Origin: Acidimicrobiia bacterium | GTDB taxonomy: Bacteria > Actinomycetota > Acidimicrobiia > IMCC26256 > PALSA-555 | NCBI GenBank assembly: GCA_036559825.1 | Contig: DATBSK010000044.1 | Location: 1 to 39,079 of the forward strand | Length of the DNA stretch: 39,079 nucleotides | Direction: 5' to 3' | Shown: positions 6,478 through 39,047 of the stretch, piece after piece | How the letters are laid out: every line of letters starts with the position of its first letter | Position numbering within the stretch: position 1 is the first letter of the stretch | Program-made: the position numbers and the translations under genes | Notes under the pieces: generated by a model | Database searches by the model: none | Told to the model about the DNA's origin: nothing | Seen by the model: the letters and a program-made list of their open reading frames with translations, nothing else

Positions 6478-6924
6478 TCAGGCGAGCACCCACCGGGGGA
6501 GCGTGACGTCCTCGACCTGCTGGAACACGACCCGGACCGGCGCCCCGATGACGATCGTCGCCGGATCGACCTCGTTGATCGGACCGTCCGGTCGGGCAAG
6601 CAGGTTCCCCACCATCCGCAGCGTCGGATCCTCGTCGAGCGCCACGACGATCACGTTGTAGGGCGCGAGCTCGGCGTACGCCGGGAGCAGCGGCGGGTGC
6701 GGGACGACGAACGACCAGATCGTGGCCCGGCCCGATACCGGCACCCACTCGACCGCCGTGGAGCGGCAGCGCGCGCACATCGGACGAGGCGGGAACCGCG
6801 CCGTCTGACACGCGCCGCAGCGCTGGACGAGCAGCTCGTGGCGCGCGCACCCGGCCCAGAACTCCTCCGCGTCCTCGCTCTCGACGTCGGGGAGCAGGAA
6901 GCCCGTCGCCATCTCCGTCACCAT
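6478..6924 (-). CDS. DUF35 Zn-ribbon/OB-fold protein (partner of SCP-x-type thiolases)
   Basis: CGACQTARFPPRPMCARC (CxxC...CxxC rubredoxin-like ribbon) followed by an OB-fold segment ATIWSFVV...YNVIVVALDE. Confidence 0.9.
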   Translation of the reverse strand: MVTEMATGFLLPDVESEDAEEFWAGCARHELLVQRCGACQTARFPPRPMCARCRSTAVEWVPVSGRATIWSFVVPHPPLLPAYAELAPYNVIVVALDEDPTLRMVGNLLARPDGPINEVDPATIVIGAPVRVVFQQVEDVTLPRWVLA

Positions 6925-6992
6925 GGCTCGCTCACTGCGCCTCGGGGTACCCGAGCCGCGGCCGTTCGCTCACGTGGCGTCATCTGCGTCAC
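6918..6992 (-). repeat. Intergenic structured element (family copy E) forming a 24-codon bridging mini-ORF
   Basis: Sense sequence: GTGACGCAGATGACGCCACGTGAGCGAACGGCCGCGGCTCGGGTACCCCGAGGCGCAGTGAGCGAGCCATGGTGA. The GTG (6992-6990) overlaps the thiolase TGA (6991-6989). The TGA (6920-6918) overlaps the GTG directly after the DUF35 ATG. Hairpin CTCGGG-TAC-CCCGAG lies at 6941-6955. Confidence 0.6.
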
Positions 6993-8164
6993 CGCCTCAG
7001 TAAGAGAGCGCTCGTCGGCACACCCTCGCCGCTCGTGACGAGGCAGCAGTCGGCGCTCTCGACCTGACAGGTCGAGGTCCCACGCATCTGGCGGACACCT
7101 TCGAGCACCAGGTTGAAGCCGTGCACGTAGGCCTCGGACATCCCGCCGCCGCTCGTGTTCGTCGGCAGCCGGCCCTCGGGCCACTCGAGCGCACCGTCCT
7201 CGGTGAACGCCCCGCCGTCACCGCGGTCGCAGAACCCGTAGCCCTCGAGCGACAGCGGCACGAGCGGGCTGAACGCGTCGTAGATCTGAGCGACCTGCAC
7301 GTCCGCGGGTGCGAACTCCGAACCGTGCCAGAGGCGCCTCGCGGCCGCCCACGACGGTCCGGCGAGCGGATCCTCGTTGAAGTAGTTGATCATCGTCTGG
7401 TGCTGCGGAGGGATGCCTTGCGCGCCCGTGTGCACGTAGACGGGTGGGTGGGGCAGATCCGGCGCGCGCTCGGCAGGGACGAGGACGATCGCGAGCGCGC
7501 CGTCCGTCTCGAGACAGTTGTCGAAGAGACACAGCGGCTCGGAGATCCAGCGCGCCTCCAGGTAGTGCTCGCGCGTCAGCGGCTTCTCGTACATCGTGGC
7601 CGCCGGATTCTGGTTGGCATGCTTGCGAAACGCGAGTGCGACGTTCGCGAGGTGGTCGCGGGTCGCGCCGAACTCGTGGATGTACCGGCGGGTCAGCATC
7701 GCGACCTCGTCGACGGGTCGCAGCAGTCCCCAGGGCCGGCTCCACTGCCAGTGGTCGCTCAGCCGCTGCGGGACCTGCGCCCAGGGCCGGCTCGACTTCG
7801 CGGCACGCTTTCGCGCTCGCCACGCCACGGCGACGGTGCACTGCCCGGTCGCGACTCCCATCGCGGCTTGGAGCACGACGCCGCACCCCGCGCCGCCCCC
7901 GTAGCCGACCTGTGAGAAGAACGTGATGTCGCCGAGGCCGACGTTGCGCGCCACGTCGACCTCGCGGTTCGGCTCCATCGTGAACGACGCCAGCCCGTCG
8001 ACCTCCGCAGGCGCGATGCCCGCGTCGTCGAGCGCGGCGGAGATCGCCTGGCATGCGAGCGAGAGCTCGGTGTCGGGCAGCCCCTTGCCGAACGCGGTCT
8101 GGCCGATGCCGACGATCGCGACGCGGTCGCGCAGCACCGAGTCCGTGCGCGGCATCGTCACCAC
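6989..8164 (-). CDS. Thiolase-like lipid-transfer protein (SCP-x/Ltp type, non-acetoacetyl-CoA thiolase)
   Basis: VAIVGIGQTAFGK...ELSLACQAISAALDDAGIAPAEVDG and C-terminal NTSGGGMSEAYVHGFN are typical of Ltp-type thiolases paired with DUF35. The start is ambiguous: GTG 8164, GTG 8161 or ATG 8155. Confidence 0.9.
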   Translation of the reverse strand: MVTMPRTDSVLRDRVAIVGIGQTAFGKGLPDTELSLACQAISAALDDAGIAPAEVDGLASFTMEPNREVDVARNVGLGDITFFSQVGYGGGAGCGVVLQAAMGVATGQCTVAVAWRARKRAAKSSRPWAQVPQRLSDHWQWSRPWGLLRPVDEVAMLTRRYIHEFGATRDHLANVALAFRKHANQNPAATMYEKPLTREHYLEARWISEPLCLFDNCLETDGALAIVLVPAERAPDLPHPPVYVHTGAQGIPPQHQTMINYFNEDPLAGPSWAAARRLWHGSEFAPADVQVAQIYDAFSPLVPLSLEGYGFCDRGDGGAFTEDGALEWPEGRLPTNTSGGGMSEAYVHGFNLVLEGVRQMRGTSTCQVESADCCLVTSGEGVPTSALLLRR

Positions 8165-8311
8165 CCCGCCTTCATGGCGTCGCTCGCTGCGGCCCGGGAT
8201 ACCCGGTCCGCAGCCGCTTGCTCCGCACCCACCCTCACCAACCCGCCTTCATGGCGTCGCTCGCTGCGGCCCGGGATACCCGGTCCGCGGCCGCTTGCTC
8301 CGCACCCACCC
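8158..8311 (-). repeat. 2 x 77-bp tandem repeat (family copies B1 8235-8311 and B2 8158-8234), MIRU-like
   Basis: Sense unit: GGGTGGGTGCGGAGCAAGCGGC[C/T]GCGGACCGGGTATCCCGGGCCGCAGCGAGCGACGCCATGAAGGCGGG[T/G]TGGTGA. The two units are 75/77 identical. Each carries the hairpin GCGGACCGGG-TAT-CCCGGGCCGC (10-bp stem, 1 mismatch) and a 26-codon ORF. Confidence 0.9.
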
Positions 8312-16157: not shown

Positions 16158-16592
16158 ATGGCCGACGAAGCCCACGAGCGCATCGCGGTGGCCGCGCCGC
16201 CGAGCCGGCTCTGGGAGATCGCGACCGACTACGAGCGTTATCCCTCGTGGGCCCGGGACGTCAAGCACGTCGAGGTGCTCGATCGGGACAGCCAGGGACG
16301 TGGCAAGCGGGTCGAGTACCGCGTCGCCGGATTGGGAAAGAGCATCCGCTACGTGCTCGAGTACGAGTACGAGGACGCACCGACGGCGTTCTCGTGGCAC
16401 TTCGTGGAAGGTGACTGGTTGCGCAAGCTGGACGGGCGGTACGGGTTCGAGCCCGAGGCTGACGGGACCCGCGTGACCTACGACCTCGTGGTCGATGTCT
16501 CCGCCCCGCTCCCGGGGCTGATCAAGCGCCGCGCCGCGAGCATGATCATGGGCACCGCCCTCAAGGAGCTGAAGAAGGAGGCGGAGCGATGA
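16158..16592 (+). CDS. SRPBCC (START/polyketide cyclase-dehydrase-like) family protein
   Basis: IAVAAPPSRLWEIATDYERYPSWARDVKHVEVL...WLRKLDGRYGFEP is a typical Polyketide_cyc2-type sequence, similar in layout to mycobacterial TB16.3. Confidence 0.85.
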   Translation: MADEAHERIAVAAPPSRLWEIATDYERYPSWARDVKHVEVLDRDSQGRGKRVEYRVAGLGKSIRYVLEYEYEDAPTAFSWHFVEGDWLRKLDGRYGFEPEADGTRVTYDLVVDVSAPLPGLIKRRAASMIMGTALKELKKEAER

Positions 16593-16726
16593 GCGAGCGT
16601 CTCGCGAGCCGGGTAACCCGGCTCGTAGCGAGCGGGGCAGGAGCCGTCGCTTGCGACGGCGACCCGGAAGGACAGCGGCAGGCGCGAAGCGCCCTGCGGC
16701 GAAGCCGCAAGGAGCGGGAAGGATGA
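16589..16726 (+). repeat. Intergenic structured element (family copy A, 134-bp insert) forming a 45-codon bridging ORF
   Basis: ATG 16589 overlaps the SRPBCC TGA (ATGA). TGA 16724-16726 overlaps the next gene's ATG 16723 (ATGA). Peptide: MSERLASRVTRLVASGAGAVACDGDPEGQRQARSALRRSRKEREG. Four stem-loops at 16605-16625, 16643-16660, 16681-16693 and 16696-16708. Confidence 0.6.
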
Positions 16727-17049
16727 GCGAGGCTCTCCGGAACGAGGAGTCCGGGTCGAGCGACGAGGGCAGCGACTACGCCGACCCGGACGCGCCCGGT
16801 CCCTCGATGCCACCACCGACCGCGGTCGAGTCGCTCGTCAACGCCCTGCTCGAAGCCGGACCCGAGGTCGCCGAGCACGTCGTCAAGGCCGCCCAGGAGC
16901 TGCTGCTCGCGGTGCAGGCGATCGTCGACGCGGCGGATCGCGCGGTGCAGGAGCAGCAGACGATCCGCGCGGACCGTACGGCAGACGAGGCAACCGCGGC
17001 TCGCTCCGAGGACGAGGCCGAGGTGCGTCACCTCGATCTCGCCGACTGA
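16723..17049 (+). CDS. Hypothetical acidic protein (108 aa)
   Basis: MSEALRNEESGSSDEGSDYADPD..., helical C-terminal half. AAGGAG lies 8 nt upstream. No recognisable domain. Confidence 0.6.
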   Translation: MSEALRNEESGSSDEGSDYADPDAPGPSMPPPTAVESLVNALLEAGPEVAEHVVKAAQELLLAVQAIVDAADRAVQEQQTIRADRTADEATAARSEDEAEVRHLDLAD

Positions 17050-38473: not shown

Positions 38474-38524
38474 GGGAGCGAGCGTGGAGCGGGCCCGGGC
38501 ATCCCGGGCCCGGAGCGAGCGAGC
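38474..38524 (+). repeat. Intergenic structured element (family copy C) upstream of, or fused in frame to, the HNH gene
   Basis: GGGAGCGAGCGTGGAGC-GGGCCCGGG-CAT-CCCGGGCCC-GGAGCGAGCGAGC. Perfect 9-bp stem at 38491-38511, flanked by direct GAGCGAGCG boxes. Confidence 0.5.
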
Positions 38525-38537
38525 AAGGGGAGATGGC

Positions 38538-39047
38538 TTGGGGAGAGCGCTGCTGCTCAACGCCACCTTCGAGCCCCTCTGCGTCGTGTCCGCCCGGCGG
38601 GCCGTCGTGCTCGTGCTCAAGGCGAAGGCGGAGGTCGTGGAACGCAACGGCGCCGCCTTCCGCTCGGAGCGCGCGGTCATCCCGGTCCCGTCGGTGGTGC
38701 GCCTCACGCACTTCGTGCGCGTCCCGTACCGGACCCGCGTGCCCCTGTCGCGGCGCGCGGTGTTCGCCCGTGACGGGCATCGCTGTCAGTACTGCGGCCG
38801 CAGCGCCGAGAACCTCGACCACGTCCTCCCGCGCTCGCGGGGCGGAACGCACAGCTGGGACAACGTCGTCGCCTCCTGCCGTCCGTGCAACGCGCGCAAG
38901 GAGGACCGGCTCCCTCAGGAGGCGGGCCTCCGCCTGCGCCGCGCGCCCGCCGTCCCCCACGCCGACCTCTGGCTGATCGCGACCGCCGGCGCGCTCGACC
39001 CCGCCTGGACGCCCTACCTCCCAGGCCTGGAGGCCGTCCCCGCCTAG
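38538..39047 (+). CDS. HNH endonuclease family protein
   Basis: LLLNATFEPLCVVSARRAV..., HNH core RDGHRCQYCG...LDHVLPRSRGGTHSWDNVVASCRPCNARK. TTG 38538 is preceded by AAGGGGAG at 5-nt spacing. An in-frame GTG at 38484 is an alternative. Confidence 0.85.
   Translation: MGRALLLNATFEPLCVVSARRAVVLVLKAKAEVVERNGAAFRSERAVIPVPSVVRLTHFVRVPYRTRVPLSRRAVFARDGHRCQYCGRSAENLDHVLPRSRGGTHSWDNVVASCRPCNARKEDRLPQEAGLRLRRAPAVPHADLWLIATAGALDPAWTPYLPGLEAVPA

Follow-up and report, generated by a model that had tools for sequence, protein, structure and literature searches.

The junction between an SRPBCC gene and the gene of a small acidic protein raises a simple question in the window analyzed here (i.e., the whole stretch of 39,079 nucleotides): is the hairpin-rich spacer that lies between them a structured leader belonging to the downstream gene, or an insertion that preserved the translational coupling of the two genes? 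The initial annotation had proposed both readings, and every sequence detail that it gave is borne out at its coordinates: the ATG of a 45-codon ORF (16589) overlaps the stop codon of the SRPBCC gene (TGA, 16590-16592) in an ATGA, the encoded peptide is exactly the one quoted, and the TGA of this mini-ORF (16724-16726) overlaps the start codon of the downstream gene (ATG, 16723), so that the 3' end of the element is again an ATGA. All four stem-loops described earlier are in place, and the AAGGAG of the downstream gene (16709-16714, 8 nt 5' of its ATG) adjoins the last of them (Table 1). The downstream protein matches DUF5304 (PF17230) at E = 1.4e-4, i.e., under the curated cut-off, its orthologues in relatives likewise come after an SRPBCC gene, and the mini-ORF itself matched no Pfam family.

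Table 1 Features of the spacer element and its flanking genes (window coordinates)
Feature	Position	Strand	Remarks
Upstream gene, SRPBCC / Polyketide_cyc2 protein, 144 aa	16158..16592	+	Pfam PF10604, E = 6e-20
Repeat element and 45-codon relay mini-ORF	16589..16726	+	ATGA to ATGA, period 134 (= 2 mod 3)
5' junction GATGAGCGAG	16588..16597	+	upstream-gene stop, mini-ORF start and start of box 1
Box 1 GAGCGAGCG	16591-16599	+	5' flank of hairpin 1
Hairpin 1 CGAGCCGGG-TAA-CCCGGCTCG	16605..16625	+	family core; covariation; -22.4 kcal/mol, z = -3.0
Box 2 AGCGAGCG	16627-16634	+	3' flank of hairpin 1
Module B, 45 nt (15 codons) added in the long form	16635..16680	+	
Module B hairpin GCCGTCGC-TT-GCGACGGC	16643-16660	+	
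Hairpin GGCGC-GAA-GCGCC	16681..16693	+	replaces hairpin 2 of the short form
Hairpin 3 GCGGC-GAA-GCCGC	16696..16708	+	covariation; fold z = -3.05
3' terminus: Shine-Dalgarno-like AAGGAGCGGGA, 4-nt variable spacer, ATGA	16709..16726	+	
Downstream gene, acidic 108-aa protein, starts MSE	16723..17049	+	weak DUF5304 match

Compared with shuffled sequences, three of the four stem-loops of the spacer fold with z-scores of -2.9 to -3.1, the one at 16681-16693 folds more weakly (z = -1.6), and the entire spacer reaches z = -2.1. Scanning the element for promoters and terminators yielded neither, nor a terminator-like tail, and at gathering thresholds nothing in the window matched Rfam 15, the below-threshold matches of window and spacer being at chance level (E of at least 0.8). 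In a single copy, an open frame of 44 codons is unremarkable at 72% GC (about 0.47 by our own estimate); its significance rests on the family.

The genome is a 2.86-Mb Acidimicrobiia MAG (G000), 80% complete, whose contigs often break within these repeats, and it shows the spacer to be one copy of a dispersed modular repeat and not a locus-specific leader. The family HMM produced 68 hits in 62 loci, so that at least 62 family loci are present, about 30 of them of the same subfamily as the spacer copy, and model R1 has 76 matches in the genome, including the spacer element (contig C44) at 77 bits. Within the window, the core that had been recognized as shared recurs on the minus strand at 6866-6973, 8134-8225 and 8235-8302, in copies that match the same covariance model, as does a further copy on the plus strand (38474-38544). 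Searches with blastn and nhmmer recovered about 20 short copies and three further long ones, the latter at 86-88% identity. The extra 45-nt module is carried by the spacer copy and these three, i.e., four long copies, and module B also occurs, in other arrangements, in at least six other mosaic elements; the constant parts are the 5' core and the 3' Shine-Dalgarno (SD) module, and module B is the optional part. Subfamily copies begin near-universally with NTGAGCGAGCG, the 3' terminus has the family consensus AGGAGCGGGAnnGATGA, and other copies share the 3' hairpin block as well. The heptamer GCGAAGC of the last two stem-loops had earlier been pointed out as forming a stable mini-hairpin; we reject it as a functional feature because the loop sequence varies among copies (GCA, GGA or GAA).

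The gene context of the copies was obtained with our own simple codon-log-odds gene caller. Each of the 62 loci lies between genes. The element points the same way as the downstream gene at 55 of 60 (binomial, about 5e-12 by our calculation) and shares the direction of the upstream gene at 47 of 57 loci. At 18-19 loci the upstream stop falls within the first 4 nt of the element, the first TGA being that stop, and ten loci lie in divergent spacers, where there is no upstream gene to couple to. Copies precede functionally unrelated genes. Tandem pairs were seen at C31, C162, C7, C2, C239 and C173 as well as in the window, and relatives carry tandem arrays of up to 4 units. Given that 401 of the 1757 co-directional gene pairs in the genome have 4-nt overlaps, coupling junctions are abundant targets.

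The element starts with TGA/NTG, ends with NTG/TGA and almost always has a length of 2 mod 3, so that one open mini-ORF bridges its neighboring genes. Every intact subfamily copy reads in this order: NTGA, a mini-ORF of 28-45 aa, NTGA and a gene of more than 100 aa, and the strict relay chain holds for both tandem pairs too. The periods found in G000 (83, 86, 89, 131 and 134) are all 2 mod 3. In a set of 91 copies from many MAGs, which share descent so that open frames and copy counts are not independent events, NTGA stands at both ends of 44. Of these, 36 have a length of 2 mod 3, in 10 length classes from 62 to 134, and 8 do not. Of 78 copies, 47 have an A directly 5' of the first TGA, although A makes up 3.3% of third codon positions. 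The closure of the frame persists from copy to copy. The peptide is not conserved, and the Arg-Val-x-Arg that the initial annotation took for a shared reading fails outside some of the copies: the hairpin-1 loop is read R-V-S-R in these and Gly-Tyr-Pro in other relay-competent ones. Across hairpin 1 the frame is displaced by indels (RVSR vs GYP), yet the total phase is restored.

An empty ATGA site at this junction in related genomes had been suggested as a check, and it exists in one genome of the same genus and three of other genera: the SRPBCC and DUF5304-like genes meet in a bare ATGA in G003 (same genus, GAGCGATGACCGAG) and in G014, G005 and G010 (other genera). Two other members of the genus retain the element termini only, i.e., G004 (ATGAGCAAGGAGCGGGTGACATGA, a 7-codon relay ORF, 111 nt shorter) and G001 (ATGAGCGGCCGGGAGAGGAAGCGATGA, an 8-codon relay ORF, 108 nt shorter), and similar terminus-only remnants are also found within G000. 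A second locus (C219) is occupied in G000 and G004 and empty in G001, G006, G026 and G029. Judged from these junctions, the spacer element is an insertion. The 10-mer GATGAGCGAG does occur at both of its ends (16588-16597 and 16722-16731, 134 bp apart), the junction repeat of this copy having 1+9 exact matches at a period of 134, but its interpretation as a fixed 10-bp target duplication was rejected: the repeated stretch varies between copies from TGA to TGAGCGAGCG, i.e., from 3 to at least 10 nt. Empty sites already contain (A/G)TGAGCGAG.

We consider it likely that the spacer is a lineage-specific insertion of a hairpin-rich repeat at an ancestral ATGA, with a relay mini-ORF that keeps the coupling. 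The idea of an insertion preserving translational coupling, one of the two originally offered, is supported by the relatives with a bare ATGA and by the membership in a dispersed repeat, and none of the outcomes named in advance as speaking against it was seen. From 5' to 3', the copy is made up of box 1, hairpin 1, box 2, module B (optional in the family), two more hairpins, an SD-like sequence and ATGA, and it entered, in sense orientation, the ancestral ATGA stop/start overlap between the SRPBCC and DUF5304-like genes. A ribosome ending the SRPBCC gene would re-initiate at the overlapping ATG, read 45 codons while melting the hairpins on the way, stop at the TGA over the downstream ATG and re-initiate there, helped by the element's own SD; by such a stop/re-start relay through the mini-ORF, the ancestral translational coupling would survive the insertion. 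The mini-ORF probably passes ribosomes on in the manner proposed for mycobacterial MIRU, its peptide is most likely a by-product, and the hairpins are more likely to be features of element propagation or RNA stability than gene-specific regulators.

A further reading, which we put forward as possible though doubtful, is that the family represents a distinct class of mobile DNA that homes to translational-coupling junctions. Such DNA would recognize a stop/start overlap together with the short box (A/G)TGAGCGAG and bring in a "delivery ORF" that sets its own phase and carries its own SD. Its hairpin cassettes, module B among them, would be exchanged, and in-frame internal deletions would reduce it to relay scars of 7-8 codons. 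Neither a Y1 transposase nor a reverse transcriptase would take part, the insertion being due to another enzyme or to host recombination on microhomology. If this is true, a share of the short relay spacers found genome-wide would be insertion fossils.

It appears rather unlikely that the spacer is instead a domesticated structured RNA (an RNase III/E site, an mRNA stabilizer or a translational attenuator), in which the hairpins would set the expression ratio of the neighboring cistrons, the number of tandem units would serve for tuning and the mini-ORF would be secondary. Folding and covariation analysis across copies does reveal three covarying hairpins, kept across genera by compensatory changes: paired cells make up 95.9%, both partners have changed in 5 pairs, the observed covariation score was reached by none of 500 shuffles, the 91-copy set holds additional compensatory changes, and C200 carries a compensatory variant (GCCGGCGC/GCGCCGGC) of the module B hairpin. 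The strict sense orientation, the SD that directly adjoins the last hairpin and the tandem arrays of up to 4 units fit a structured RNA as well, and REP, ERIC and Correia elements, which affect mRNA stability, provide precedents. However, the genes after the copies are functionally unrelated, the same junction is occupied or empty between species of one genus, remnants keep the relay frame without any hairpins, there is neither an Rfam family nor a terminator-like tail, and the G-U bias is weak (22 G-U vs 13 A-C in the stems, an excess too small to mark the structure as one acting in sense RNA). A structured-RNA role is compatible with the insertion and relay explanation.

We regard it as very improbable that the repeats are REP/BIME-type elements, i.e., single-stranded hairpin DNA moved by RAYT or an IS200/IS605-type Y1 transposase and cut at the TGA. 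REP/BIME elements with RAYT transposases occur in gamma-proteobacteria and others, and the likeness extends to small, GC-rich palindromes that are imperfect and whose modules combine into mosaics, to extragenic copy numbers in the tens to hundreds, to conserved boxes adjoining hairpin 1 and to insertion beside a particular short sequence with no duplication of fixed length. In contrast to REPs, the Acidimicrobiia family is one-sidedly sense-oriented and anchored at start codons, with a phased ORF and an SD, and most copy-rich relatives lack a RAYT/Y1 gene: PF01797 (Y1_Tnp) is absent from G000 and from the copy-rich G001, G004, G009, G013 and G019, with control genomes positive, and its presence in 4 of 41 genomes has no relation to copy number, on which grounds we rejected a Y1/RAYT transposase as the mobilizer. 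That the 45-codon ORF encodes an Arg-rich micro-protein with a function of its own and many paralogs is hard to credit; its frame is open and in phase in nearly all copies and its coupled start would be SD-independent, but the sequence of the peptide is not conserved and has no Pfam match, the frame across hairpin 1 shifts while the total phase is restored, compensatory stem changes alter residues, and remnants of 7-8 codons still bridge the genes. Retro-element-like copying by way of RNA would account for insertion exclusively in sense (orientation follows transcription at 55 of 60 loci), but it merits next to no credence: selection for a working relay explains this bias equally well, and reverse transcriptase (PF00078), rejected as mobilizer, is absent from G000 and most copy-rich relatives, its presence in 6 of 41 genomes bearing no relation to copy number.

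Among 151 genomes sampled across the class, model R1 found matches in one order only. Exact 27-mer matches came from MAGs labelled Acidimicrobiia/Acidimicrobiales, Actinomycetes or Actinomycetota, and two 27-mer-bearing MAGs are labelled Bifidobacteriaceae, a label that is probably wrong. For Acidimicrobiia, our literature search turned up no account of repeats of this kind. In Streptococcus pneumoniae, the BOX elements (boxA-boxB(n)-boxC) similarly combine constant end modules with an optional or variable middle (module B in the Acidimicrobiia family), but they are unrelated in sequence and host, and they are not known to carry ORFs that overlap stop and start codons. Correia/NEMIS and ERIC elements resemble the family in their co-transcription with neighbors, RNA hairpins and strain-variable presence, and they possess terminal inverted repeats and fixed target duplications, whereas the 5' end of the spacer element (ATGAGCGAGCG) does not match its reverse-complemented 3' end (TCATCCTTCCCGCTCC) and the junction repeat of the family is variable in length.

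The closest likeness is to MIRUs (Supply et al. 1997), which the passages cited here describe as short repeats scattered between the genes of operons, frequently as tandem units, invariably pointing the same way as their neighbors and bearing a small ORF that overlaps the stop and start of the neighbors (-4, ATGA); they are thought to enter at start codons with little disturbance of expression, and no transposase is known for them (PMC12548453, PMC4473831, PMC3635867). Each of these traits has its counterpart in the Acidimicrobiia family, which is dispersed, intergenic and often in tandem (62 loci; arrays of 4 in relatives), oriented like its flanking genes (downstream 55/60, upstream 47/57), equipped with a small ORF that overlaps the stop and start of its neighbors in all intact subfamily copies, and without a Y1 transposase in G000 and most copy-rich relatives. 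It differs in having three to five stable hairpins in a modular mosaic, whereas MIRUs are described, in the passage cited, as being without dyad symmetry (PMC4473831), and in its host, one order of Acidimicrobiia and not Mycobacterium. By this comparison, the family can be regarded as a hairpin-bearing analogue of the mycobacterial MIRUs, probably unrelated to them in sequence and set apart by its dyad symmetry and its host.

For annotation, relay mini-ORFs should not be called proteins, and downstream starts can be mis-called; the repeats also break MAG assemblies, and strains could be told apart by their number of tandem copies. TGAGCGAG is a candidate sequence-specific target of the element. 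Bare junctions, scars of 7-8 codons and 30- and 45-codon forms together provide natural variants for the study of termination-reinitiation through structured RNA. The design known from MIRUs, i.e., a repeat that invades stop/start junctions with a throw-away ORF keeping ribosomes flowing, would have arisen or persisted outside mycobacteria, here in a hairpin-bearing and modular form that reaches tens of copies in a genome and extends over an order of uncultured Acidimicrobiia.

The spacer between the SRPBCC gene and the DUF5304-like gene is a copy of a dispersed repeat and no local leader. The source genome (G000) is an incomplete MAG (2.86 Mb, 246 contigs, 71.5% GC, estimated 80% complete), and blastn recovered from it three other full-length copies and ca. 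20 shorter ones of roughly 89 nt, in which the central part of the window copy is missing. All copy counts for the family are lower bounds: ca. 55 cores by nhmmer with the 5' core as query, 68 matches at 62 loci with the family HMM, and at least 76 matches (104 candidates scored) with R1, the covariance model of the family. Several contigs terminate within repeat copies (C102 at its end; C199, C22, C211, C30 and C7 begin or end there); the repeat is one reason why the assembly of this MAG is broken up, and its copy number is underestimated. The initial annotation had left the choice between an insertion and a structured leader; dispersed copies and empty sites uphold the former, and the latter fails as a locus-specific reading.

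Coordinates of the window copy's ORF, its flanking genes and other copies of the repeat in the source genome
Feature	Location	Remarks
SRPBCC gene	window 16158-16592	Pfam Polyketide_cyc2; stop TGA 16590-16592 within ATGA
45-codon ORF	window, start ATG 16589	stop TGA 16724-16726, within second ATGA
Downstream gene	window, start ATG 16723	108-aa acidic protein, weak DUF5304 match
Full-length copy	C121:19125-19254	blastn, one of three at 86-88% identity
Full-length copy	C229:959-1083	blastn, one of three at 86-88% identity
Full-length copy	C205:19995-20125	blastn, one of three at 86-88% identity
Copy of a core subfamily	window 6866-6973 (-)	R1 match
Copy of a core subfamily	window 8134-8302 (-)	R1 match; tandem pair of copies
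Copy of a core subfamily	window 38474-38544 (+)	R1 match

Within the window copy, the features first annotated are borne out by the sequence: the ATGA overlaps at both ends of the 45-codon ORF, its peptide (matching exactly), the 10-mer GATGAGCGAG at both junctions, 134 bp apart, and the four stem-loops with AAGGAG. Three of the four stem-loops are clearly more stable than shuffled sequences (z about -3), and that at 16681-16693 reaches only z = -1.6. At 16601-16633, the spacer TCTCG pairs with box 2 (CGAGC), one of the short boxes flanking hairpin 1, and extends this hairpin across a 3-nt bulge; in other copies TGAAG replaces TCTCG and the extension is impossible. The short form of the element begins with NTGAGCGAGCG, 5 nt, hairpin 1 (CGAGCCGGG-TAT-CCCGGCTCG) and AGCGAGCG, and continues with hairpin 2 (GGGGC-CGAGC-GCCCC), hairpin 3 (GGCGGC-GCA-GCCGCC), AGGAGCGGGA, 3-4 nt and NTGA. 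The window copy is a long form, with 45 additional nt (15 codons; module B) that contain the hairpin GCCGTCGC-TT-GCGACGGC. As module B precedes a hairpin-1-type core in C19, C157 and C166 and enters further combinations in C200, C154 and C69, the family is built as a mosaic: the hairpin cassettes vary in their arrangement, and the 5' end and the 3' end, a Shine-Dalgarno-like sequence (SD) with ATGA, stay constant. The box-hairpin-box core is also common to A-only forms (about 50 nt) and to a 57-nt subfamily, often in tandem.

The empty ATGA site sought at the SRPBCC junction is present in G003, of the same genus (GAGCGATGACCGAGCC), and in G014, G005 and G010, of other genera. Two further members of the genus carry scars, i.e., element termini that still bridge the genes by an ORF running from NTGA to NTGA (a relay ORF): in G004 (ATGAGCAAGGAGCGGGTGACATGAGCGAG) the element's first six bases are fused to the SD end, giving 7 codons, and in G001 (ATGAGCGGCCGGGAGAGGAAGCGATGA) the ORF has 8 codons. 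These spacers are shorter than the window copy by 111 and 108 nt, both multiples of three, and the simplest reading is that the element inserted in the genus and that two lineages then lost internal parts of it in frame; G003 either was never invaded or has lost the element precisely. In G000, too, several spacers look like termini-only scars (e.g., GTGAGCCGCCAGGAGCGGAAGAGGTGA in C171); they are among 112 strict NTGA-to-NTGA mini-ORF spacers of 3-66 codons between long ORFs.

The stretch repeated at the element's two ends varies among copies from TGA to TGAGCGAGCG, which rules out a fixed target duplication. Given that 7 of 18 genes downstream of elements start NTGAGCGA, compared with 2% of all starts predicted, and that the box is already present at empty orthologous sites (the G014 SRPBCC junction reads ATGAGCGA), insertion favours stop/start overlaps resembling the element's own 5' box; recognition of a specific sequence would account for this, and so would a process dependent on microhomology. 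The C219 junction is occupied in G000 and G004 and empty in G001, G006 and G026 (GTGAGCGAG) and in G029 (GTGACCGAG); at the C43 junction, G002 (ATGAGCGAC) and G001 (GTGACCGG) both lack the element. At the junction orthologous to C219:15985, G008 (locus L144) carries a different insertion after a TAG stop, with a GGCCGGACGGCC hairpin and the end GAAGAGATGAGCGAG, and this site appears to have been struck independently.

Genes in G000 were called with our own codon-log-odds caller (2847 genes, 92.6% coding), which recovered both genes flanking the window copy exactly. By these calls every one of the 62 loci falls between genes. The element shares its orientation with the downstream gene at 55 of the 60 loci concerned and with the upstream gene at 47 of 57, and 18-19 loci have a called upstream gene whose end falls in the first 4 nt of the element. 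Ten loci lie in divergent spacers, so the constant feature is the downstream gene's start codon and not an operon-internal position. Overlaps of exactly 4 nt are very common in G000, in 401 of its 1757 co-directional gene pairs. Every intact copy of the window copy's subfamily runs from NTGA through a mini-ORF of 28-45 codons to a second NTGA and an ORF of >100 codons with high GC3; the first TGA is the upstream gene's stop wherever that gene ends at the element, and tandem pairs chain two mini-ORFs. Periods in G000 (83, 86, 89, 131 and 134) are all 2 mod 3. The window copy's frame is unremarkable by itself (at 72% GC, 44 codons would stay open with an estimated chance of about 0.47), and the case for a relay frame rests on the family. 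Among 91 copies from many MAGs aligned to R1, a start codon overlies the 5' TGA in 67, and of the 44 that have NTGA at each end 36 measure 2 mod 3, in ten length classes (62, 65, 77, 83, 86, 89, 92, 101, 128 and 134); three length classes of NTGA-to-NTGA copies are not 2 mod 3. An A precedes the 5' TGA in 47 of 78 copies, versus 3.3% A at third codon positions. Since the copies are related by descent, none of these counts, in G000 or across MAGs, stands for independent events.

The mini-ORF peptide is unconserved. The initial annotation had correctly placed core copies elsewhere in the window, at what are now R1 matches, but its Arg-Val-x-Arg reading is not general: some copies read the hairpin-1 loop as R-V-S-R, others as G-Y-P, with overall phase restored. 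The phase is kept although the peptide is not, which suggests that translation itself matters and not its product. Outside the window, at C137:4781-4873 (+) of G000, a 636-codon ORF opens directly on the element's 5'-terminal NTG; here the repeat apparently forms no separate mini-ORF but an in-frame N-terminal extension of the protein encoded downstream. G000 also holds a second, different relay-type repeat (C49:2599, C76:8920, C128 and C165), NTGA(G/T)CCGGAGCGGAGCCGTGCTCGGAGGAGC..GGCGGAGGCG..GAGATGA, of 20-21 codons, which bridges long ORFs from NTGA to NTGA.

The stems are supported by covariation across copies. In 16 G000 copies 95.9% of cells pair (28-49% in slid controls), five pairs have changed on both sides, and none of 500 shuffles reached the observed score; further compensatory types occur in the 91-copy set and in module B of C200. 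A modest excess of G-U over A-C pairs in stems (22 vs 13) is compatible with function at either the RNA or the DNA level, and searches found no Rfam family for the element and no promoter or terminator inside it. The hairpins may have a regulatory role, possibly alongside the relay; however, as a primary role this is disfavored, as the downstream genes are mutually unrelated, presence of the element varies within the genus, and scars keep the frame and lose the hairpins. A functional micro-protein is contradicted by the divergent peptides, and a REP/RAYT system or a retro-element by the absence of Y1/RAYT transposases and reverse transcriptases from G000 and most copy-rich relatives; the window copy has no terminal inverted repeats.

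R1 matches occur in 25 of the 41 relatives, their distribution is patchy among genera, and the highest count in a genome is 87 (counts being lower bounds); the near-complete G063 carries four-unit arrays of period 86. In a class sample of 151 genomes, the 17 positives all belong to one order. An exact 27-mer of the family was found at 78 loci in public genomes, all MAGs labelled Acidimicrobiia, Acidimicrobiales, Actinomycetes or Actinomycetota, apart from two labelled Bifidobacteriaceae; the "uncultured Bifidobacteriaceae bacterium" records (L057, L075, L091, L099, L113 and L124; CAZCYE01..., CAZHKE01...) are probably mislabelled. Our literature search found no published description of such repeats in Acidimicrobiia. 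The closest design is that of MIRUs, which the literature describes as intergenic, co-oriented repeats whose ORF ends overlap the adjacent genes and which insert, with -4 coupling, at start codons (PMC12548453, PMC4473831, PMC3635867). The Acidimicrobiia repeat matches this design as described but has dyad symmetry, the lack of which is given as a defining feature of MIRUs (PMC4473831), and sits in another class of Actinomycetota. By these descriptions the element would work like a MIRU, yet is no member of that family.

The best-supported reading of these sequences is a selfish or neutral repeat whose presence at coupling junctions would be tolerated because ribosomes would terminate and reinitiate twice in succession by way of the mini-ORF, which together with the element's own SD would keep the downstream gene translated.
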